Shown here piece by piece: positions 7,542 to 50,579 of a stretch of DNA of 64,000 nucleotides. Source of the DNA: an uncultured virus (IMG/VR IMGVR_UViG_3300035520_000158) (taxonomy: Duplodnaviria; Heunggongvirae; Uroviricota; Caudoviricetes; Crassvirales); the IMG/VR virus record IMGVR_UViG_3300035520_000158; one strand, given 5' to 3'. Positions within the stretch are counted from its first letter, which is position 1. Each line of letters opens with the position of its first letter. Made by a program: the position numbers and the translations under genes. The notes beneath the pieces were generated by a model. The model did no database searches. It was not told the DNA's origin and saw nothing but the letters and a program-made list of their open reading frames with translations.

Positions 7542-8353
7542 CATTATTGTTACTAATATATCGTTTCCATATATTATCTCTAACTTTCATTAGAGGTCAG
7601 ACTATATCTTCATTAACATTATAAATGTTAAGCAAGGCATTTCAGTTTCACTTGAAACTTACTCCATATAGGATAGTCGTTGAACCTTCAATTATAAATA
7701 GAATTATAATTGCTTGGCTGCTGGTTATCCAATCTTTCACATTGTTTCTTTTTACGAATTATGTTTTTTAAAGTAGTATATTTGATATTAAACAAATGTG
7801 CAAGTTGATTTACTGAATATAATGTTCTTAGTTTATCAATTTGAGAAACTTGAAAATCTGTAAGTATTGTATTTTTAGGTACATCTTTACAAATTTTTCT
7901 ATTTCCAAATTGAAATGAATGATAAACATTTTCTTTAGGTGTTACCCATTCAAGATTTTCAACTTTATTATTTGTTCTATTACCATCTATATGATTAACA
8001 GCTGCTTTATTATCAGGATTAGGTATAAAAGCTTTTGCAACTAATCTGTGTACAGGTTGTGATGTCCATGTTCCATCTAATTTTTGAACACTGCATCTGC
8101 AATAACCATCTCTATCTTTAGCAAATTCTGTTAATATTCTTTCTTTTCTAGTTTTATTAGAAGCTTTTAAAATTCTTCCAAATGAACTTACTTTAATACC
8201 CTTATATTCATCTAGGGTTTTCCATAATTCTTTAGTTTCCATAATTAAATGTTTGAAACTTAAAAAGCAGTGAAAGCTCTAAGGAACTTCCAGCAATTAA
8301 CCTTGTTTATTAAAGTGGGATCTGAGAATGTGTAAACGCTTATTAAGCGGCTA
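7542..8353 (-). mobile_element. Group I intron (812 nt) in the major capsid gene
   Basis: P AATTGCTGGAA, Q AACCAGCAGCCAAG, R GTTCAACGACTA, S AAGATATAGTCT. P1 GTGGGGTT/GATCCCAC with U.G at the splice site. P10 TTCTCA/TGAGAA. Terminal G. Confidence 0.92.
7688..8242 (-). CDS. Intron-encoded NUMOD4/HNH homing endonuclease
   Basis: [37 protein letters not shown] and a C-terminal HTH-like segment. Confidence 0.9.
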
Positions 8354-9710
8354 AACCCCACTGATATGATCTTAATTCACTTTGACCCTTAATAGCAGCC
8401 TTCTGAATATTAGGCTGATCCATAGAACCAATGTACATTATATCATATCTATAAGATTGTGCAGGACCACCATTGGGGTGCATTATCTTATTTCTTACAG
8501 GATCATCATACCAATCATCAACTTCAATTTTTACTCTTACACCATTAGGAGCTTTATACTCTACAAACTGGAAACCAGCACTTAGAGCATTAGAATGAAG
8601 CTCAGATTGAGTCTTTTGAATAACACCAATAGAACTATTATCAAGTACAAATTGTGTCCAACCTGATACTGTCTTTAATACCTCTTTATGGAATTGAATA
8701 GCACCTCTTTCACCTGTATGTAGAATGAAGTATCTATCATTTAAACCTAACTTAGAAGCACTTAAATCATAAAGTGCATCCTCAATAAGTTTAATAGAGA
8801 ATGTATTGTAATATCTGGTATTAGCATAAGACATCTGCTCAAGAATACCTGCACCTGTCTTAATTACATTGCCTGATTTACCAATATTTAGATACTCACC
8901 ATTAGCATTTCTATTGCTTCTACCAAACATTAGAGCATTATTCTTATACTCTGAGAATTGTACCTCAAGCTCATAGTCTACATAGTGCATCCACATATTC
9001 TGTACTGTATGCTTACCAGCAGCATCAACTACAGGAATACCACAAGCTAATTTCTTGCCAAGGTTACTACCAGGTTCCTTATGCTTAATACGAATAGTAG
9101 TCCACTCATTTCTCATAGCTACAGGACTAGAGAATCTAATGTCACCTACACCTCTAGAAAGTTCTCTTTCTACAGGAGCAAACTCTACTGAGAATCTCTC
9201 ACCTGCAAGTAATCTCTCAGGAGGAACACCTATTGTATTAGCAGCCATAAGCTCTACCTTATAAACTGCATTGGGACCCTCAAGAATAGCATCACCTAGT
9301 ATTCTAAACTGATAAAGCTCATTGAAATTACCAACAATAATTTCACCATCTGCAAACCAATCTTCACCAAATACCAGATAGAAAGGAGCAGTACCAGCAC
9401 CTACATTAGTTGTAGTTTCCGCAGTAACTACTACACCATTTTCATCTCTTGCCTCTAGCAAAGGAATATTTCTTCTTGAAGAACCAATTACATCCCAATA
9501 GAACTCACTATCATCCTCAAATTCCTTAGTAGGGAATTGATTCAAGAATGTATCTAGGGACTTACCTCTGTGGTAAGCTAAAAGCTGTACCATAAGATTA
9601 GTGGCTTTCTGAGGAGCTAATTGGAAAATACTACCAAGGTGTGAAGCCTTAGTTAAACCTTTCCAATGCTGAAAACCTACCATCTGAAACTTGCCTAATT
9701 TTCCAGCCAT
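8354..9710 (-). CDS. Major capsid protein, exon 1 (spliced product 501 aa)
   Basis: MAGKLGKFQMVGFQHWKGLTK start typical of crAss-like MCPs. The frame stops just inside the intron. Confidence 0.88.
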
Positions 9711-42942: not shown

Positions 42943-43863
42943 ATGGCTTTTGCATCAGGTAAAAAATCAACAGAAGGTGCTTCATTTAAGCATTATATTG
43001 GTGTAGGTTCTTGTTTTGTTCTTGCACTTAATCCTAATAAAGCAGAACTTTCTTCTCTTTATGGTACTGAGATTACTAATGACCCTAGTTATCTTAGTGA
43101 AGTAGAAATCAATGGTAATAAGATTCCTAGTGTAAGATTGGATTTTATCTTGAAAACAGATGTAAATTCACCATTTAATAATGGTATTGAATTTACTTCT
43201 AAGGCAACATTCTTCTTGCGTAAGGAACCTCGTTATAATAAGGATGCTACTAAGTGTCAGGTAATTGATAAATATGGTAGAACAGCATGGGTAACTATAG
43301 AACAGGCTAAAAATCATGAGATTCCTGTTTATTCTAATGGTCCTGCTAAAATCTGCCCAGATTATCGTGTAGCCTATGTAGGTGAAGAGGATTTGGTAAA
43401 TTTCCTCATAGCTTATTTGGGGATTCCTGGTACTACTAAGCGTCAAGCTGATGGTAATTATATTGAGAAAACTGCAGAGGAACTTGTAGAATGTGAAGCA
43501 GGTTTGGAGAAAATTAAAGAGTATTTTAAGGGAGATTTTTCAGAACTTCGTAATATTATTGCTCTTCAGCCTGAAAACAAGGTAAAGGTAATGTTTGGTG
43601 TTAAGAATAATGATGGTAAGCAGATTCAAACTGTTTATACTAATATGTTCTTAAAGAGTGCAGCTCCTGAAGCAGCTCTTGCAAGATTAGCAACAGATTT
43701 GGAAAATCGTAAAGCTAATGGTGCATATCCTAATTGTGAATTTGCAGCTTGTAAGATTAAGGAGTATTCTGTTGAAGCTACAGATTTAGCAGAAGTAAAG
43801 AATGATACTTCAGATCTTCCTTTCCAAGAAGGTAATGGAGCATCAAATGAAAGCTGGTTCTAA
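42943..43863 (+). CDS. Probable single-stranded DNA-binding protein
   Basis: Acidic tail SDLPF...ESWF; located between the ATPase and primase. Confidence 0.6.
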   Translation: MAFASGKKSTEGASFKHYIGVGSCFVLALNPNKAELSSLYGTEITNDPSYLSEVEINGNKIPSVRLDFILKTDVNSPFNNGIEFTSKATFFLRKEPRYNKDATKCQVIDKYGRTAWVTIEQAKNHEIPVYSNGPAKICPDYRVAYVGEEDLVNFLIAYLGIPGTTKRQADGNYIEKTAEELVECEAGLEKIKEYFKGDFSELRNIIALQPENKVKVMFGVKNNDGKQIQTVYTNMFLKSAAPEAALARLATDLENRKANGAYPNCEFAACKIKEYSVEATDLAEVKNDTSDLPFQEGNGASNESWF

Positions 43864-43894
43864 TACTTTGTGATAAACCTTTAAATCTTTTATT

Positions 43895-44908
43895 ATGGCA
43901 TTCAGTAAGGGACAAATTACTGTAAGCCTTGAAGATATTCTACATTATATTACAGAAGGAGAGATTGCTGCTTATTATTTAGGTATTAATGCTGTACCTT
44001 GTGTAATAAATAGTCCATTAAGAGAAGATAGACACCCTTCATTGGGTGTCTATTCTCCTGATGGTAAGAAAATACACTATACAGATTTTGCAACTAACGA
44101 AAGTGGTAGTATATTTGATTTGTTGAGCAAAATGTGGAATCTATCTTTTAATGATGTTTTAGTAAGGATTTATAAAGAATGTCTTTATACTAAAAGCAAC
44201 ATTAAAATACATAAAAATGTAGATAGATTAAATATTAGTGTAGGTAAAAGTTCTTCAGACTTACAGTGTAAAGTAAGAGAATGGAGAAACTATGATGTAG
44301 ATTATTGGGAACAATATGGTATCTCAATAAAGTGGCTTAAATATGCAGAAGTTTACCCTATATCACATAAAATTATCATTAAAAACAAATGTAAATATGT
44401 ATTGAATGCTGATAAACTGGCTTATGCTTATGTAGAGCATAAAGAAGGAAAGATAACTTTAAAGATTTATCAACCCTACAATAAGAATGGATACAAATGG
44501 TCTAATAAACATGATAAATCTGTTATTAGTTTATGGACTAAAGTACCTGCTACAGGTATTAATATTTGTATCTGTTCTTCCTTAAAAGATGCTTTATGTC
44601 TTTGGGCAAATACAGGGATTCCTTCAATAGCTATACAAGGTGAAGCTTATAAAATGAGTAATACAGCCATTAATGAATTAAAAAGAAGGTTCAAATATAT
44701 CTTTATTTTATTAGATAATGATGAACCAGGAATCAGAGACGCAGAACAGTTATCAAAGGAAACAGGCTTCATTAATGTTGTATTACCTCAATTTGAAGGT
44801 GGAAAGGATATATCAGATTATTACAAAGTATTGAATAACAAAGAATTATTTAAAGAAACTATTATTGCTCTATTTAGAGCACAAGTAATTAACCATTCTA
44901 AAAATTAA
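43895..44908 (+). CDS. dnaG: DNA primase (Toprim)
   Basis: SPLREDRHPS, DFA, SLKDAL, LDNDEPG, KDISDY. Confidence 0.85.
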   Translation: MAFSKGQITVSLEDILHYITEGEIAAYYLGINAVPCVINSPLREDRHPSLGVYSPDGKKIHYTDFATNESGSIFDLLSKMWNLSFNDVLVRIYKECLYTKSNIKIHKNVDRLNISVGKSSSDLQCKVREWRNYDVDYWEQYGISIKWLKYAEVYPISHKIIIKNKCKYVLNADKLAYAYVEHKEGKITLKIYQPYNKNGYKWSNKHDKSVISLWTKVPATGINICICSSLKDALCLWANTGIPSIAIQGEAYKMSNTAINELKRRFKYIFILLDNDEPGIRDAEQLSKETGFINVVLPQFEGGKDISDYYKVLNNKELFKETIIALFRAQVINHSKN

Positions 44909-44914
44909 AACATT

Positions 44915-45550
44915 ATGGAAACTAGAACTATTTTGATCGTAGATTCAGCTGCTAACAAGAAAGTAGAAATTAACACTGCAGCAACTACATTTGGTGAATT
45001 GAAGTCTGCCGCTATTGCAGCAGGTATCAACATTTCCAATAAGGATTGGTTGGAAGGAATTACAAAATCATCTCCTCGTAGTGATGATGCTCTTCTTCCT
45101 ACTAATGTAAATTATCATGGAACAATTACCAATAATTTGGTATATATGCTAACTAATACTAACAAACAAATTAGATCTGGAGCTATGAATCGTGCAGAAA
45201 TTATCCAGTTTATTAAGGGTCATTCCCTTGAAGGTGTAGTTAAATCAACTTATGGTAAGAACTACACAAATTGTAGTACAATGGATTTGCAGAAAATTGT
45301 AGACAAGGAACTCAAGAAGGCTCCTGCTACAAAGCCTGTAGATTCTCACAAGGTATCAGAACCTATAAATGAAGGTTCAAGTGCTCAGACTCAGGGTAAT
45401 TCTAATACATCTGTAGATGTAAAGGAGCTTACTCTTGCAATTATTACCTTCTTTAAGAGCCTTCCTGCTTCTATTAAGAAGGAAGTGGAGAATAGTCTTA
45501 AAGAGGTAAAGTTCAGTGATAGTGATATTAATACGCTATTCAGAAAGTGA
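44915..45550 (+). CDS. Putative ubiquitin-like (beta-grasp) precursor with C-terminal extension
   Basis: aa 1-89 show a beta-beta-alpha...beta pattern (TILIVDS, KVEINT, ATTFGELK, DDALLP, LVYMLT) ending KQIRSG. Adjacent to E2, JAB and E1 genes. Confidence 0.6.
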   Translation: METRTILIVDSAANKKVEINTAATTFGELKSAAIAAGINISNKDWLEGITKSSPRSDDALLPTNVNYHGTITNNLVYMLTNTNKQIRSGAMNRAEIIQFIKGHSLEGVVKSTYGKNYTNCSTMDLQKIVDKELKKAPATKPVDSHKVSEPINEGSSAQTQGNSNTSVDVKELTLAIITFFKSLPASIKKEVENSLKEVKFSDSDINTLFRK

Positions 45551-45580
45551 TTAACTAATTAAGTAATTGGTGGTAAAAGG

Positions 45581-45630
45581 TAATGGGTGATATACATTTT
45601 ATAGTGTATGTCACCCATTATTTTTATTTT
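45581..45630 (+). terminator. Strong hairpin between the Ubl and E2 genes
   Basis: taatgggtgatataca/tgtatgtcacccatta followed by a T-run. Confidence 0.75.
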
Positions 45631-45662
45631 ACTATTAATGCTAAATAATCTATTGTCATTTA

Positions 45663-46790
45663 ATGGTTTTTCAAATGGCTGATACAAATTCTGAAACTGC
45701 TAAAACTACTACATCTACTACAACTACTGCACCTGTTACTATAAATGATATATATAATACATTCATAGATTATTATGGTGAAAATAGAGTAGATTTAGTA
45801 CAATCTGCAGATGAAGTACTATGGTTTTATAATACTTATGCTATAAGTATGTATACCAAGTATATTATCTTAGTTCACTGGCCTAATGTAAAGATTACAA
45901 ATGAACATGATAAAAGTATAGAAATTAAAGACTTCTTCTGTTTAATTCAAATAAATAAAGAATTTAAATTACAAGAAGATATAAGATTTAATAAATCTAC
46001 TTATAGTGAAGACCAATGGAGATCTCAGTATATTCATAGTCATGTTCAAAGTTTAAACTATCCTGCTTTTAATAGGTTTAAACCTTGTTGTTTAGGTTCT
46101 GGACCTATTAAAACTACTAGTTATAGATTAAAGAATGAAAAATTTGATGAATTTACATGGAGGTCTTTTGTTTGGGAACTAGATAAATATGTTCATGTAG
46201 AATCTCTTGTAGGTGTTCCTTATATGTATCTTGAAAGAGTAGGTACCGGAGAAGGGTATTCAAGAAGTGCTGAAATTACTGCTAATTTTTGGGATATAGC
46301 AATGCTTCATCCTTATAAATCAGCTAAATATGTTGAAAACTTCTTTACTCATTTAGCATCTTCAGGTATATTTAAATTTCATTATATAGATGGACAATAC
46401 AGGTTAGCGGAAGATCCTATTAAGTTAGCTATAAACATTACTAATGTTTATATTAAATGGGCTAATGAAGATACTGATTATCCTTCATCAACCCATAGAG
46501 AATTTATGAAATATAATATTTCAGACTATTATTTAATAGGTAATAAATTATATACACCTGGTAATAGTTCAACAGTGATTAGTTCTTTATCATATATAGG
46601 AAGAGATATGTTTAAGTTTAAAGGTAATATGATTAAACTTAAACTTGATACTACATTAGTAGACCATCCTACAATGTTTAAGGTACTAAGACTTGATATT
46701 ATAGGTCATATATTATATAAAGTAGAAAGATTTGTAAATGTATGTTATGGAAGCAATGTTACCATTGATAAAAAGCTCGCAATCATTTGA
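45663..46790 (+). CDS. Prokaryotic E2-like protein
   Basis: YIHSHV...KPCCLGSGP, comparable to the E2 HxH/HPN...CLG active-site signature. Confidence 0.6.
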   Translation: MVFQMADTNSETAKTTTSTTTTAPVTINDIYNTFIDYYGENRVDLVQSADEVLWFYNTYAISMYTKYIILVHWPNVKITNEHDKSIEIKDFFCLIQINKEFKLQEDIRFNKSTYSEDQWRSQYIHSHVQSLNYPAFNRFKPCCLGSGPIKTTSYRLKNEKFDEFTWRSFVWELDKYVHVESLVGVPYMYLERVGTGEGYSRSAEITANFWDIAMLHPYKSAKYVENFFTHLASSGIFKFHYIDGQYRLAEDPIKLAINITNVYIKWANEDTDYPSSTHREFMKYNISDYYLIGNKLYTPGNSSTVISSLSYIGRDMFKFKGNMIKLKLDTTLVDHPTMFKVLRLDIIGHILYKVERFVNVCYGSNVTIDKKLAII

Positions 46791-47904
46791 ACTTATTGTT
46801 ACAAAAGAGCTTGAAAATAAAATTAGATTCTTGTGTGAAAAGTTGCCTACTAAAGAATATTCAGGTACTTTATTTTATAAGACTTATGGCTCTTTTGAGA
46901 ATAAAAGTCTTATAGTTGAAGCTGTAGATTTCTATCTTCAAGATATTGGTGTATCAACATTTACCCAATTTAAGAATGATGTAAATCTAGCAGGATATAT
47001 GGTAGACCATGATTTAATGGATTGTTTTACAGGTTTAATGCATTCTCATAATAAAATGGCTACATTCTTTAGTGGTACAGATATTAACACATTACAATCT
47101 GAAGGAAATGATGCTAATCATTTTGTATCTTTAATTGTAAATAATGAAGGTAAATATACTGCAGCAATTACAAGAAAAATTACAAATATAGCTGAAGGAG
47201 ATTATCAAACAGAATATAGAACATTTGGAGATAATCTTATTAGCTCTAAAGGAGAACATTATAAAACTACCAATTCTGCTATTGAATACTCTGATTTAAC
47301 AATTAGAGTATATGAAGCATCAGGAGAACCTGAAACAGAATTGGAGGAAAGATTTGATGAACTTCTTAAAGATGCTAATTCTTTCCTTAATGCTAGTAGA
47401 AAATCTGAATTTGAAACAAAAGATGGAAAGAAAAGTAATTATACGGGAATCTCACAATATAACCCATTTGTGGGGGATTGGTCATTGTTTGAGGATATTC
47501 CTGAAATACCTGATAATAACTTTATTAATGATAATGGCTCTAATATTCGAATTAGTTCTAATATCATAAATTCTCATGTAGCTCAGATTATTACAGGTAA
47601 CTTATTTGCAAATTACAAGAGAGATCTTGATCTAAAATCTTGGATTAAGAATATGGAGGTAGTTTATGATAGGAGATTCAAAAATAACTTTGATGCATTT
47701 AAGACATTTGCAGATAGTTTTATTGAATTTCTTAATTTTGAATTACCTGAAATTGTATATCATGGAGTTGTTGTAGACTTTGTAGAAAGAGATTGTGCAT
47801 GGGCAGAACAACTTAGTTACACTCTCGAAAATATGTGTAAATATAAAAGAAATAAGTATTTGGATTATTACATTGAATCATTAAAAGTATGGACCCTAGT
47901 GTAA
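46738..47904 (+). CDS. JAB/JAMM metalloprotease
   Basis: EYSG...HSHNKMATFFSGTD matches E...HxH-x7-S-x2-D. Confidence 0.85.
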   Translation: MYVMEAMLPLIKSSQSFELIVTKELENKIRFLCEKLPTKEYSGTLFYKTYGSFENKSLIVEAVDFYLQDIGVSTFTQFKNDVNLAGYMVDHDLMDCFTGLMHSHNKMATFFSGTDINTLQSEGNDANHFVSLIVNNEGKYTAAITRKITNIAEGDYQTEYRTFGDNLISSKGEHYKTTNSAIEYSDLTIRVYEASGEPETELEERFDELLKDANSFLNASRKSEFETKDGKKSNYTGISQYNPFVGDWSLFEDIPEIPDNNFINDNGSNIRISSNIINSHVAQIITGNLFANYKRDLDLKSWIKNMEVVYDRRFKNNFDAFKTFADSFIEFLNFELPEIVYHGVVVDFVERDCAWAEQLSYTLENMCKYKRNKYLDYYIESLKVWTLV

Positions 47905-49055
47905 ATATTGATGTAAATCAAATTCTGGCAGAATATGGTTTAAGTGGTGTAGAAGATGCTACTCCTACTTCTCAGCAATCTAATGAAAATGAAGCATCTA
48001 ATACATCTGCTAATTCTAGCTCTAATTTAAATGATAATAATGGAGAAACAGAAGAAGATGAAAATAATATTGAAGATGTAGAATATGAAGATGTTAGTGA
48101 AGAAACTTCAAATGCTGCTACTAATACTACTACTGATACTACTACTTCTAATTCTTCTACTACTTCTACTACTCCAAATATTAGTCATCCAGAAGATTTA
48201 GTAAATCAAACTCCAAGTAGACCTTATACTCATGTTACCTCTGCTCAAGTAGATGAGCTATTAGAAACATTGCAAGGTAACATTGATGTAAATAGGGATG
48301 CTGTACCTGCAAAACAAAAGCCTAATATTATAGAGGAAAATACTGAAATAATAAATGAAAATTTAGCTAGATTCAGTAGTGCAGAATGGTTTGAAGAAAT
48401 TCAAAAGCAATCTATTACTCTTGCAGGTTTAGGAGGTATTGGAAGTTGGGTAGCACTTATTCTTTCAAGATTAAATCCTCAAAGTATTTATATGTTTGAT
48501 GATGATAAAGTAGAAGAAGTTAATATGGCAGGTCAATTTTATAGTAGCTATGATGTTAGAAAATATAAAGTTGATGCTGTATGTAATTCTATTATAGAGT
48601 ATAGTAAGTATTACAATGCCCATGCTAATAGAGTTAAATATGATTATTCTTCTCTTACAACAAACATTATGATTTGTGGATTTGACAATATGAGTGCTAG
48701 AAAAGTATTCTTTGGTAGATGGAAAAATCATATTGAAGAACCTAAAGTTAAAAGATCTGAATGTTTGTTTATTGATGGTAGATTAACAGCTGATGAATTA
48801 CAAGTATTTGCAATAAAAGGTGATGATACTTATAATATTAATAGATATTATTCTGAATATCTGTTTGATGATTCTCAAGCAGAAGAAACAGTTTGTAGTT
48901 TTAAACAAACTACTTATTGTGCTACAATGATAGCTAGCATTATTGTAAATATTTTCACTAACTTTATTGCAAGTTTAAAGAGTCCATTACTTTATGATGT
49001 ACCATTTAAGACTTATTATGGTACTAATTTAATGTTCTTTAAAACTGAAAGTTAA
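47889..49055 (+). CDS. E1/ThiF-family activating enzyme with disordered N-terminus
   Basis: RFS, GLGGIGS, DDDKVEEVNMAGQ, KVD, GFDNMSAR, DGRL; candidate catalytic Cys in ETVCSFKQ. Confidence 0.88.
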   Translation: MDPSVNIDVNQILAEYGLSGVEDATPTSQQSNENEASNTSANSSSNLNDNNGETEEDENNIEDVEYEDVSEETSNAATNTTTDTTTSNSSTTSTTPNISHPEDLVNQTPSRPYTHVTSAQVDELLETLQGNIDVNRDAVPAKQKPNIIEENTEIINENLARFSSAEWFEEIQKQSITLAGLGGIGSWVALILSRLNPQSIYMFDDDKVEEVNMAGQFYSSYDVRKYKVDAVCNSIIEYSKYYNAHANRVKYDYSSLTTNIMICGFDNMSARKVFFGRWKNHIEEPKVKRSECLFIDGRLTADELQVFAIKGDDTYNINRYYSEYLFDDSQAEETVCSFKQTTYCATMIASIIVNIFTNFIASLKSPLLYDVPFKTYYGTNLMFFKTES

Positions 49056-49056
49056 T

Positions 49057-49767
49057 ATGGCTTTTATTTACAAATCATTTTTAAGTAAAGTATTTGAGCC
49101 TTATGCCACTTTATATGTAGGATTTAATAATTTAGGCCCTTATAAGTATCGTGAATTTTCTAGAGCTAGTTTTAAAATATCCACGGACTATAATGCTAAT
49201 AATTTAGTTCCTGTATTTGCTTATCAGGTAGTAAAAAATATAATAGAAAAGAAAGCTGGACCAGATATAGCTTTCTTTCCTGTTGTAGAAAATACTATAG
49301 GATGTATAGAAGCTAAGAGTACAAGCACTATATTAAATCTTATGGCTGCAAATACTGATGCAAGGTTTTCAAAAGTAAAGCTTAAAGACCATTACTATTA
49401 TGTTAATAGAGGAGTTTTATTAAATGAAAACTTTAATATAATGTTGATATTTGGTTATGGAATGGGTGGTAAAACAAGAGTAGATAATAATTTTAAGTTA
49501 TATACTTATATAAACTCAGACATCTTTGATAGCACAGACCCTATGACCAAATATATAGCTTCTACTTTTATTAAGAAAATAGCTACAGAAACTTTTAAAG
49601 TAAGAAATTTGGATAATCGTATTCATGATACTTGTATTATTATTAAGAAGCTTAAAGATATGATTTGGTTTCCTAAAGACACTGCACATTGTCCTTATGA
49701 CCAAGCTGCTGTAGATAAGTTACTTAAAGATAATGCAAAAGTGGTATTTCAGAATTCTTATGATTAA
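49057..49767 (+). CDS. Hypothetical protein coupled to E1
   Basis: Starts 1 nt after the E1 stop; 236 aa. Confidence 0.65.
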   Translation: MAFIYKSFLSKVFEPYATLYVGFNNLGPYKYREFSRASFKISTDYNANNLVPVFAYQVVKNIIEKKAGPDIAFFPVVENTIGCIEAKSTSTILNLMAANTDARFSKVKLKDHYYYVNRGVLLNENFNIMLIFGYGMGGKTRVDNNFKLYTYINSDIFDSTDPMTKYIASTFIKKIATETFKVRNLDNRIHDTCIIIKKLKDMIWFPKDTAHCPYDQAAVDKLLKDNAKVVFQNSYD

Positions 49768-49868
49768 GTTAAATATCTTTAAATATTAAATAGAAATGAT
49801 GCTATGGTCTTTTTATTTAGTATATTTGCAACAACTAATTAAGTCTAACAATCTAATACATTATTTGT

Positions 49869-50579
49869 ATGGAAAAGAAAATTAAAATTATTACAAAGTT
49901 CTTTACCAAAGATGGTATAGAAATTAAACCCAACACTTTTTGTCACATTGAAAATAAGGATTTTACGCTTATTGGTAAAGTTTCCTTTGAACAACTTAAA
50001 GCTTATGCAGATATGGGCTTTATAGTAATGAAAGTTTACAAGCATGATGTAAAAACAGGAAGTGATACTGATATTGACAAAAATGTTAAGGATAATCAGG
50101 TTCCCAGTGAAGAAGGAAAGAATGTAGAAACTAAAAATAATCCTAATGATCTCTCTAAAGATCAAATTGAATTATCTAAGATTATTCGCAAGGCATTTAT
50201 TAGTAAAGAAGACCATGTAGCTTATAGTCTTATTATAGATTCTATTGCAATTAAGCATCATATTAAAGGTGAAAAGGTACATCATATTCTTGAAAGACTT
50301 TATGATATTAGTCCTATAGCAGTATTTAATGTCCTGTTTAATGAAGCTGCATTTATGCTGGATATTAATTATCCTGACCACATTAAAGATGCTAAGGTAC
50401 TTTATTCATTCTCTCCTGCAAGAAAGTTTATTTATCCTGTACACGTAGACAATAAGCTTTATTATAAGAATGTTGCTCTATTTAGAAGTATAGCAGATGT
50501 TAAGCTAGCTTTATATGCTCTTAGAGATATTGTAAAGGAGGTCTTTGGATTCAAGCCTACACTAAGTGATGGAGAATAA
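49869..50579 (+). CDS. Hypothetical protein
   Basis: 236-aa ORF. Confidence 0.6.
   Translation: MEKKIKIITKFFTKDGIEIKPNTFCHIENKDFTLIGKVSFEQLKAYADMGFIVMKVYKHDVKTGSDTDIDKNVKDNQVPSEEGKNVETKNNPNDLSKDQIELSKIIRKAFISKEDHVAYSLIIDSIAIKHHIKGEKVHHILERLYDISPIAVFNVLFNEAAFMLDINYPDHIKDAKVLYSFSPARKFIYPVHVDNKLYYKNVALFRSIADVKLALYALRDIVKEVFGFKPTLSDGE

Follow-up and report, generated by a model that had tools for sequence, protein, structure and literature searches.

Phage gene and its setting

We describe here a gene of a crAss-like phage whose product is predicted to be the precursor of a ubiquitin-like (Ubl) protein, fused to a second protein that we call the passenger. It lies within a stretch of 64,000 nucleotides (hereafter the window) from an uncultured virus of the Crassvirales (IMG/VR record IMGVR_UViG_3300035520_000158), where an open reading frame (ORF) at 44915-45550 (+) encodes 211 amino acids according to the ORF list and its translation. 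The codon GGA at 45179-45181 specifies Gly89, which is preceded by ...TNKQIRS and followed by GCT ATG (Ala90, Met91) and then by ...NRAEIIQFIKG...YGKNYTNCSTMDL; as the protein terminates in ...INTLFRK, it has no C-terminal Gly. A preliminary description of the gene had placed the end of a putative Ubl domain (...KQIRSG) at this codon, correctly in both coordinates and content, and had suggested that a JAB protease cuts the bond that follows, exposing the glycine for adenylation by an E1 enzyme and releasing a second functional polypeptide. From sequence comparison and structural modeling, we consider it probable that the product is indeed cut after Gly89 by the JAB protease encoded in the same phage cassette.

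Homologues of the 211-residue protein were matched by tblastn in 45 phage records (29 Bacteroides phages, 12 entries named 'uncultured phage cr...' and four others), including that of crAss001. In the latter the homologue is gp79, annotated as a 'hypothetical protein' and flanked by the DNA primase gp80 and by gp78, gp77 ('metalloprotease domain') and gp76 ('ThiF'). The same gene layout recurs in the window (Table 1), where the 375-residue, JAB, ThiF and 236-residue ORFs overlap or abut one another. The whole cassette, part of the replication module of this virulent-type crAss-like phage, is situated between the genes for primase and uracil-DNA glycosylase.

Table 1. Positions of genes, predicted domains and motifs in the window
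Feature	Position	Strand	Basis or remark
Primase	43895-44908
Ubl fusion	44915-45550	+
Ubiquitin-like beta-grasp core, residues 1-81	44915-45157	+	AlphaFold2, Foldseek, VIA-align
Flexible tail TNKQIRSG, residues 82-89	45158-45181	+	proposed cut between 45181 and 45182
C-terminal passenger module, residues 90-211, with stop codon	45182-45550	+	AlphaFold2, separate genes
Passenger three-helix domain	45191-45319	+	AlphaFold2
Passenger disordered linker	45320-45409	+	AlphaFold2
Passenger C-terminal helices	45419-45541	+	AlphaFold2
Passenger end motif FSDSDINTLF	45512-45541	+	conserved
Terminator-like hairpin, 20-pair stem and T run	45577-45624	+	between Ubl-fusion and enzyme genes
E2-like ORF, 375 aa (crAss001 gp78 homologue)	45663-46790	+
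E2-like His125-Ser126-His127	46035-46043
E2-like Cys143	46089-46091
JAB/JAMM metalloprotease, 388 aa (crAss001 gp77 homologue)	46738-47904	+
JAB Glu40	46855-46857
JAB His102-Ser-His104	47041-47049
JAB Ser112	47071-47073
JAB Asp115	47080-47082
ThiF-type E1, 388 aa (crAss001 gp76 homologue)	47889-49055	+
Conserved downstream ORF, 236 aa (crAss001 gp75 position)	49057-49767	+	starts 1 base past E1 stop codon

Ubiquitin-like domain, invariant glycine and passenger module

By its predicted structure, the N-terminal part of the protein is a ubiquitin-like domain with a flexible tail. An AlphaFold2 model of the 211-residue protein, built with 119 aligned relatives as input, reaches block values of the predicted local distance difference test (pLDDT) of 90-95 over residues 1-80 and shows a beta-beta-alpha-beta...beta layout, with strands at 4-10, 15-21, 43-47, 65-67, 70-72 and 75-81 and a helix at 26-35, whereas pLDDT falls below 50 at residues 85-88. 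The top rows of a Foldseek search of the Protein Data Bank (PDB) are ubiquitin variants, the UBX domain of UBXD7, SUMO1 and NEDD8 (probability 1.00, E values from 1.9e-3, target template-modeling scores of 0.6-0.7), with nothing at E <=1e-3. VIA-align returned beta-grasp domains in all 50 of the rows listed, at Z scores of 7.1-8.0, among them DIX, kindlin F0/F1, UBX, ubiquitin, SUMO, ISG15 and FAT10. These alignments end with model residue 86-87 opposite residue 76 of ubiquitin, 97 of SUMO1 and 157 of ISG15, and thus set Gly89 two to three residues past the place of the reactive glycine in known modifiers, on the disordered tail. Among predicted viral structures, the best rows after the crAss-type homologues are ubiquitin-family proteins of giant viruses. 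Comparisons at the level of sequence were negative: no significant match of the Ubl family to PDB sequences, including any solved ubiquitin, was obtained by sequence (phmmer) or profile, and the fusion protein drew no usable match in Pfam, PHROGs, NCBIfam or PADLOC (the only rows being PBECR1 at E 0.01, below its cut-off; phrog_15560, of unknown function, at 4.2e-4; ApbC at 0.068).

The most distinctive feature of the family is the fixed glycine and the freedom of everything beyond it. Counts were made over 140 relatives, consisting of the best 120 of 166 plus 20 shorter ones and ranging from 37 to 100% identity with the query. Gly is kept in 140/140, Ser precedes it in 138 (the exceptions being Asn in P0042 and Leu in P0138), and Arg or Lys stands two places before the Gly (position P3), again in 138. 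The residue directly after it (P1') is by comparison a miscellany, namely Ala in 75, Met in 30, Val in 13, Ile in eight, Tyr and Gly in three each, Asn in two, and Ser, Thr, Phe, Lys and Asp in one each, with no Pro among the 139 relatives that have any residue past the Gly. The length of the extension varies from nothing in one sequence (P0138, ending ...Ser-Leu-Gly) through one residue in two sequences and 12-15 residues in 17, whose tail is unlike that of the long forms, to 103-130 residues in 53 and 131-151 in 66; one further sequence (P0068) has 32, with an end unlike the family that suggests an artefact of assembly. In the 119-row alignment the mean frequency of the top residue is 0.71 over residues 1-81 and 0.78 over the tail at 82-89, then 0.57, 0.33 and 0.42 over residues 90-135, 136-165 and 166-211, and gaps open directly past the Gly, position 90 being a gap in 34% of rows. 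As judged from these alignments, the pattern of conservation at Gly89 is far beyond chance. A fixed reactive end followed by a freely varying extension is the signature of a modifier precursor, and supports the earlier suggestion that Gly89 is the functional end of the domain. Still longer fused forms, of 371-2000 residues, were absent from 1940 candidates, a null result that the search tool itself rates as weak evidence, and a search of the viral_contigs collection with a short form as query found long forms only.

The passenger module that follows Gly89 has a recognizable architecture of its own. The AlphaFold2 model places helices at residues 93-102, 106-113 and 122-135, a disordered segment at 136-165 (pLDDT ~32), and three more helices within 169-209. 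The helical domain, the linker and the lack of a C-terminal Gly all agree with the preliminary description; its single 'terminal helix' does not, being modeled as three short helices. A core motif, G-K-N-Y-T, occurs in 113 of the 119 long forms, and the protein closes on a peptide with the consensus Phe-Ser-x-x-Asp/Glu-Ile/Leu-x-x-Met/Leu-Phe; its core, [ILVM]xx[ML]F, falls within the last 22 residues in 100/119. This end peptide, which may resemble sliding-clamp-binding peptides or PIP-box motifs, is present also in passengers encoded by separate genes. The module could be placed in no family: six examples of the module scanned against Pfam produced scattered sub-threshold rows only (PBECR1, DUF438, ATP-cone, SWIB), nothing significant was found among PDB sequences by phmmer or profile, and the ESM Atlas yielded unnamed phage clusters only. 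A 'SAP/HeH-like' character stays an impression by eye, as even the cr106_1 module, the most helix-extended-helix-like of those seen, is without a Pfam match.

In several records the two halves of the fusion are encoded apart. Three metagenome contigs (L021, L022 and L023) carry a Ubl ORF of 104 residues that runs through ...RIRSG and 15 further residues to two stop codons; 12 bases on, in the same frame, an ORF of 129-130 residues encodes the whole C-terminal module, from Met-Asp-Arg-Lys-Glu-Ala-Tyr... to ...Phe-Ser-Ser-Ala-Asp-Ile-Asp-Lys-Met-Phe-Arg-Lys, with the E2-like gene next. In phage cr106_1 (L036, 1863-3066), an HNH endonuclease gene (2143-2658) comes exactly between a gene for a 92-residue Ubl ending ...KSGKF and a downstream C-module gene of 130 residues, the latter with the same architecture and end motif as the fused passenger; judging from this arrangement, the fusion appears to have been divided at the glycine by a mobile gene. 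The occurrence of the halves as separate genes in these four records argues that the passenger works as an independent protein and that its covalent link to the Ubl is dispensable. Because the separate modules begin exactly at the expected cut, they favor the release of a second functional polypeptide, as the preliminary description had proposed. At the same time the split Ubls retain 2-15 residues past the Gly, so that trimming would still be needed.

The fused form, on the other hand, reaches far. In Flavobacterium phage FpV4, gp53 runs through ...VKSG into the same helical module, then a long acidic tail, with the end motif reduced to ...Lys-Met-Phe-Gly. This is a very distant relative (19% identity in the Foldseek row of its near relative Fpv3), in which the gp53 fusion lies upstream (L035, 3269-8371) of an E2-like gp52, a JAB homologue gp51 and a ThiF homologue gp50, annotated as 'thiamine biosynthesis protein'; the FpV4-type cassette of Flavobacterium phages likewise adjoins primase and uracil-DNA glycosylase genes.

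Two variants of the passenger may be recorded here in their own right. That of cr126_1 (L037, 3501-4427) contains, between the helical domain and the end motif, a C-terminal domain of ribosomal protein bL12 (Pfam PF00542, E 5.1e-12, 46.4 bits against a cut-off of 25.9), an odd echo of the ubiquitin-ribosomal-protein fusions of eukaryotes. At another locus (L019, 5672-6328) the small helical domain occurs twice, in tandem.

Neighboring enzymes and the modeled JAB-Ubl complex

The putative protease carries a full JAMM motif, Glu ... His-x-His-x7-Ser-x2-Asp, whose residues E40, H102, H104, S112 and D115 are invariant in 7/7 aligned homologues, while its matches to family models are modest (Pfam Prok-JAB, E 0.0019 and 18.5 bits, below the cut-off of 25; PADLOC JAB, E 2.4e-4). 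A complex of JAB residues 1-200 (7-row alignment) with Ubl residues 1-100 (79 rows) was modeled by ESMFold2 and scored 0.78, against 0.01 for the best of three controls; the pass mark is one reached by 116/157 solved complexes and by 2/215 mismatched pairs, counts that are rough because custom alignments were used. The contacts of three runs agree to at least 93%, with partner pLDDT of at least 85. On the JAB side the confident interface comprises residues 40, 42-43, 102, 104, 112 and 115, including catalytic residues, and on the Ubl side residues 83-90, that is the tail through Gly89 and Ala90, together with a conserved patch at 44-53. The conserved motif and the docked tail are thus in line with the protease role first proposed for JAB.

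In a number of relatives the JAB gene is itself a site of insertion. At four of 17 viral loci (L008, L002, L014 and L020) it is interrupted inside the His-Ser-His active-site motif; the insert in L008 includes a group I intron (8148-8367, +; Rfam RF00028, 69.8 bits against a gathering score of 50, E 2.3e-17) and an ORF with LAGLIDADG-type motifs on the opposite strand (8325-9215). The JAB gene of the window is uninterrupted.

The ThiF-type protein is more readily assigned. It matches Pfam ThiF at 1e-13 (51.5 bits, above the cut-off of 28.1), its nearest PDB sequences are PaaA (4e-6), UBA5 (2.9e-5) and MccB (6e-4), and residues R161, G180, G182, G183, D204, D206, N212, Q216, K227, D266 and C336 are invariant in 8/8. 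Its adenylation domain spans residues ~158-375, with a single ThiF stretch at 160-354. These matches, and the nucleotide-binding residues kept among the relatives, make the suggested adenylation of the Ubl by this E1 plausible. The first ~150 residues of the protein (47889-48350) are of low complexity, rich in Asn, Ser, Thr and Glu, and vary in length and sequence among the eight relatives.

The evidence that the remaining 375-residue protein has an E2 fold is weak but one-sided. Its H125-S126-H127 and Cys143 are invariant in 94/94 aligned sequences, and the AlphaFold2 model (mean pLDDT 85.6) shows a helix, four strands, the HSH motif, Cys143 sixteen residues later and two helices. This order of elements fits the UBC fold, but the matches are weak: in an exhaustive structural search, at least 22 of 50 VIA-align rows are E2, UEV or RWD proteins by title, at Z scores of only 4.4-5.9 (Tsg101 UEV 5.8, Ubc9 5.4, Ubc8 5.3, RWD 5.3 and Cap2 4.4, as well as a chain of the BubCD-BubB-BubA entry 9eav, from the bacterial Bub system discussed below, at 4.8), and the top Foldseek rows, UbcH5c and Rad6, stand at E 0.24-0.43. 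No usable match was found in the ESM Atlas. The family is nonetheless large, comprising 1540 clusters at 50% identity (E <=0.001), and it is a constant companion of the Ubl: over the 17 viral loci, the Ubl gene is followed by an E2-like ORF in 16, the contig of the 17th ending too early, and the JAB ORF is whole in 11, interrupted in four and not reached in two.

Proposed maturation, rival explanations and known counterparts

From these observations we infer the following scheme. The 211-residue product would be a pre-protein whose first 89 residues constitute a ubiquitin-like modifier, its reactive Gly89 buried within the chain. The JAB/JAMM metalloprotease would bind the beta-grasp, thread ...Ile-Arg-Ser-Gly into its zinc site and cut the Gly89-Ala90 peptide bond, yielding in equal amounts a mature Ubl with a free C-terminal Gly and a helical protein of 122 residues acting alone. 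The freed Gly89 would be adenylated by the ThiF-type E1, and the Ubl would probably pass to the E2-like protein, with its invariant Cys143 beside His-Ser-His, before being joined to target proteins. Sequence and comparison by themselves establish the fold, the invariant Gly, a C-terminal part that varies or is encoded apart, intact JAMM and E1 motifs and the gene order; the cut, its enzyme, the adenylation, the transfer and the targets belong to the inferred part of the scheme. In true protein conjugation of this kind we place somewhat less confidence than in the cut itself.

Several points weigh against this scheme. The matches to beta-grasp domains are no more than modest, with 1.9e-3 as the lowest E value in Foldseek and Z scores of 7-8 that count as 'middling' on VIA-align's own scale, and the assignment of the E2-like protein is weaker still, with Z no higher than 5.9, Foldseek probability no higher than 0.14 and no sequence or profile match to any E2 family in Pfam, PHROGs, PADLOC, NCBIfam or PDB profiles. 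As complexes similar to the modeled one have been solved (JAMM-ubiquitin, BilC-BilA), its passing score may reflect memory on the part of the model, and speaks for likeness rather than for binding. A natural end exactly at the Gly is found in only 1/140 relatives (P0138). Fusion is the common form (119/140) and is kept even in FpV4, which implies that the link has some value of its own, and the uncut form could also act.

The prevalence of the fused form, down to FpV4, also favors a reading in which no cut occurs, the beta-grasp being a permanent N-terminal domain of Rad23 or UBX-like type, Ser-Gly a hinge or docking site, and JAB and E1 acting elsewhere. The level scores in VIA-align of DIX, FERM and UBX domains, which are never conjugated, alongside ubiquitin could be taken in the same sense. 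Such a reading nevertheless fits badly with the separate genes for the two halves in at least four independent records, given that the link is then dispensable, and with the short forms, which keep the Gly with 0-15 unrelated residues beyond it; nor would a hinge demand an invariant Gly with Arg/Lys-Ser ahead of it in 138/140. No other ORF of the cassette ends in Gly, moreover, and in the complex model it is Ubl residues 83-90 that occupy the active site of JAB. We therefore judge it improbable. A still more remote proposal, to which we attach very little weight, dispenses with proteolysis by having the C-terminal module arise from an internal translation start at Met91 (ATG 45185-45187), the full-length protein being a by-product. 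Met does lie at P1' or one residue past it in many relatives (P1' Met in 30/139), and the separate C-module genes begin at that Met; but 48 of the best 120 of 166 relatives start the stretch after the Gly with ADR (27) or AKL (21), without Met, and internal initiation would leave the Ubl without a free Gly89 and the split forms, with their 2-15 extra residues, still in want of trimming.

The main rival to conjugation accepts the cut at Gly89 and differs over what comes after it: the Ubl would be a carrier, with thiocarboxylate chemistry like that of ThiS and MoaD or C-terminal chemistry like that of MccB and PaaA, and the 375-residue protein would not be an E2. In some bacterial pathways the precursors of sulfur carriers are trimmed by JAB proteases. 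Among named models the E1 is best matched by those for ThiF (NCBIfam PRK08644 at 1.4e-16, far below its cut-off), its nearest solved structures are the PaaA, UBA5 and MccB noted above, and the weakness of the E2 fold match, with E2 families unmatched by sequence, leaves room for such a role. Yet rhodanese, cysteine desulfurase and other sulfur-transfer genes were not found among the eight neighboring proteins scanned, the tail ends in Ser-Gly where ThiS and MoaD end in Gly-Gly, the His-Ser-His and Cys kept in 94/94 of the 375-residue family are ordered and spaced as in an E2 active site, and the gene order is that of the bacterial BilABCD operons. On balance we think a carrier role unlikely, if less so than an uncut fusion.

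The arrangement proposed here, a modifier made as part of a longer chain and cut free, calls to mind the ubiquitin fusion genes of eukaryotes, in which ubiquitin is fused to eL40 or eS31 or to further copies of itself (polyubiquitin), and a deubiquitinase cuts past the terminal Gly and frees a second working protein, the residue past the Gly being variable. The phage modifier is likewise the N-terminal part of a fusion, with a variable residue past its Gly. There is, however, no relation in sequence, the phage protease is a JAMM enzyme encoded next door, and the passenger is not a ribosomal protein. A second comparison is with the PRTRC cassettes (ParB-related, ThiF-related) of mobile elements, in which genes for a Ubl and an E2-like protein travel with those for a JAB protease and a ThiF-type E1. 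Against the PRTRC ThiF model (NCBIfam TIGR03736) the phage E1 scores 36 bits (4.4e-9), far below the cut-off of 144.75; no PRTRC model matched the four other phage proteins scanned, and the cassette is without a ParB gene.

Closer functional counterparts are found in bacterial operons. The anti-phage Bil ('bacterial ISG15-like') operons (BilABCD, Types I and II), as set out in a preprint by Chambers et al. (PMC10557695), encode a Ubl (BilA), an E2 (BilB), a JAB protease (BilC) and an E1 (BilD), and the phage genes, starting at 44915, 45663, 46738 and 47889, follow the same Ubl-E2-JAB-E1 order. BilA is made with residues past a highly conserved Gly, and in a Type II system BilC was shown by experiment to cut it between Gly97 and Ala98, the same Gly-Ala bond as is proposed for the phage; a BilA-GFP fusion was cut as well (PMC10557695). 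The differences are no less clear. Bil is bacterial and defensive, while the phage cassette sits in a phage replication module, and BilA homologues have, according to the preprint, at most nine residues past the Gly (PMC10557695), in contrast to the 103-151 residues and folded module of the phage long forms. BilD is described there as multidomain, combining a CYS domain with adenylation domains both inactive and active, the phage E1 having one ThiF-type domain; the motif order given for BilB, C..E.H....H, differs from the H-S-H...C...E of the phage E2-like protein; and the PADLOC Bil models miss the phage Ubl and E2-like protein, that for BilD matching the E1 at 5.9e-5 over 100 residues only.

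In the Type I Bub system, according to a preprint by Ye et al. (PMC11601596), BubAB is a Ubl-E2 fusion that the JAB domain of BubCD was shown to cut directly after the invariant Gly229, and the authors suggest that this domain may act mainly or solely in pre-protein cleavage. Here, as in the scheme proposed for the phage, a fusion begins with the Ubl, continues into a functional passenger and is cut after the Gly by the operon's own JAB (PMC11601596). The Bub passenger is an E2, however, while the phage passenger is a helical module without E2 features, the E2-like protein having a separate gene; the Bub JAB is fused to the E1, where the phage JAB and E1 are separate, overlapping genes; and Bub E1 and E2, as described in that preprint, lack the catalytic Cys, the E2 using Ser with His, where the phage E2-like protein keeps both an invariant Ser126 and Cys143. 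A DUF6527/BubE-type protein was not found by Pfam among the eight phage neighbors scanned. As sequence models, E1 domain content and fusions all set it apart from Bil and Bub, the phage cassette would work like both while belonging to neither. By analogy, the proposed cut has direct experimental precedents in bacteria, in BilC acting on BilA and BubCD on BubAB, so that the new part would be the phage-borne form of an already known maturation mechanism.

We found no paper on this cassette in crAss-like phages, in a literature search of incomplete coverage that did not include supplements. Work on ubiquitin-like conjugation in bacteria has until now dealt with the defence of hosts against phages (Bil, type II CBASS) or with operons whose role is unknown (Bub). 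In the present case all the components, namely tag, E2-like protein, JAB and E1, belong to a phage, and to a widespread gut lineage, crAss-like phages ranking with the most abundant human gut viruses. If the scheme is correct, these phages use proteolysis to control the arming of their tag and make a second protein along with it in equal amount, much as eukaryotes do with ubiquitin fusions. The idea is directly testable in crAss001 (gp79 to gp76), which grows in culture. As Arg or Lys lies two residues before the Gly, modified lysines should carry a Ser-Gly remnant (+144.05 Da) after digestion with trypsin, which would provide a handle for finding targets by mass spectrometry. A bolder and rather doubtful extension, which we offer tentatively, is that crAss-like phages run a complete ubiquitin-like conjugation cascade of their own in genome replication, with the freed passenger, by virtue of a small helix-extended-helix-like domain and a C-terminal [IL]xx[ML]F peptide, as a replisome or DNA adaptor that either recruits the cascade to its target or is itself that target. 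Synthesis as one chain would then fix the ratio of tag to adaptor and keep the tag inert until the later-transcribed JAB appears, in a viral counterpart of both ubiquitin-ribosomal-protein fusions and PCNA ubiquitination.

Some further features of the locus bear on its expression and extent. The terminator-like hairpin begins 27 bases past the stop codon of the Ubl fusion, within the 112 bases that separate this gene from that of the E2-like protein, and accounts, in different registers, for three of the five terminator-like sites at 43800-49900, where 1.5 would be expected. A hairpin after the tag gene, in conjunction with overlapping enzyme genes, suggests that transcripts of the tag gene may outnumber those of the enzymes. 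The Ubl-fusion gene is covered by error-free contigs in two metatranscriptome libraries, which come from two studies, although DNA is a possible source and contigs reveal neither transcription nor its ends or levels, so that they are no evidence of expression; one of them (X2, 768 bases) extends from 44806 to 45573 and reads through the Gly89 codon with no gap or change, and its end near the hairpin is no evidence of termination. The 236-residue ORF beyond the E1 gene was assigned to no family in the Pfam, PHROGs, PADLOC and NCBIfam scans. Counterparts of 218-260 residues occupy the same place in related loci, and this ORF may be a further member of the cassette.

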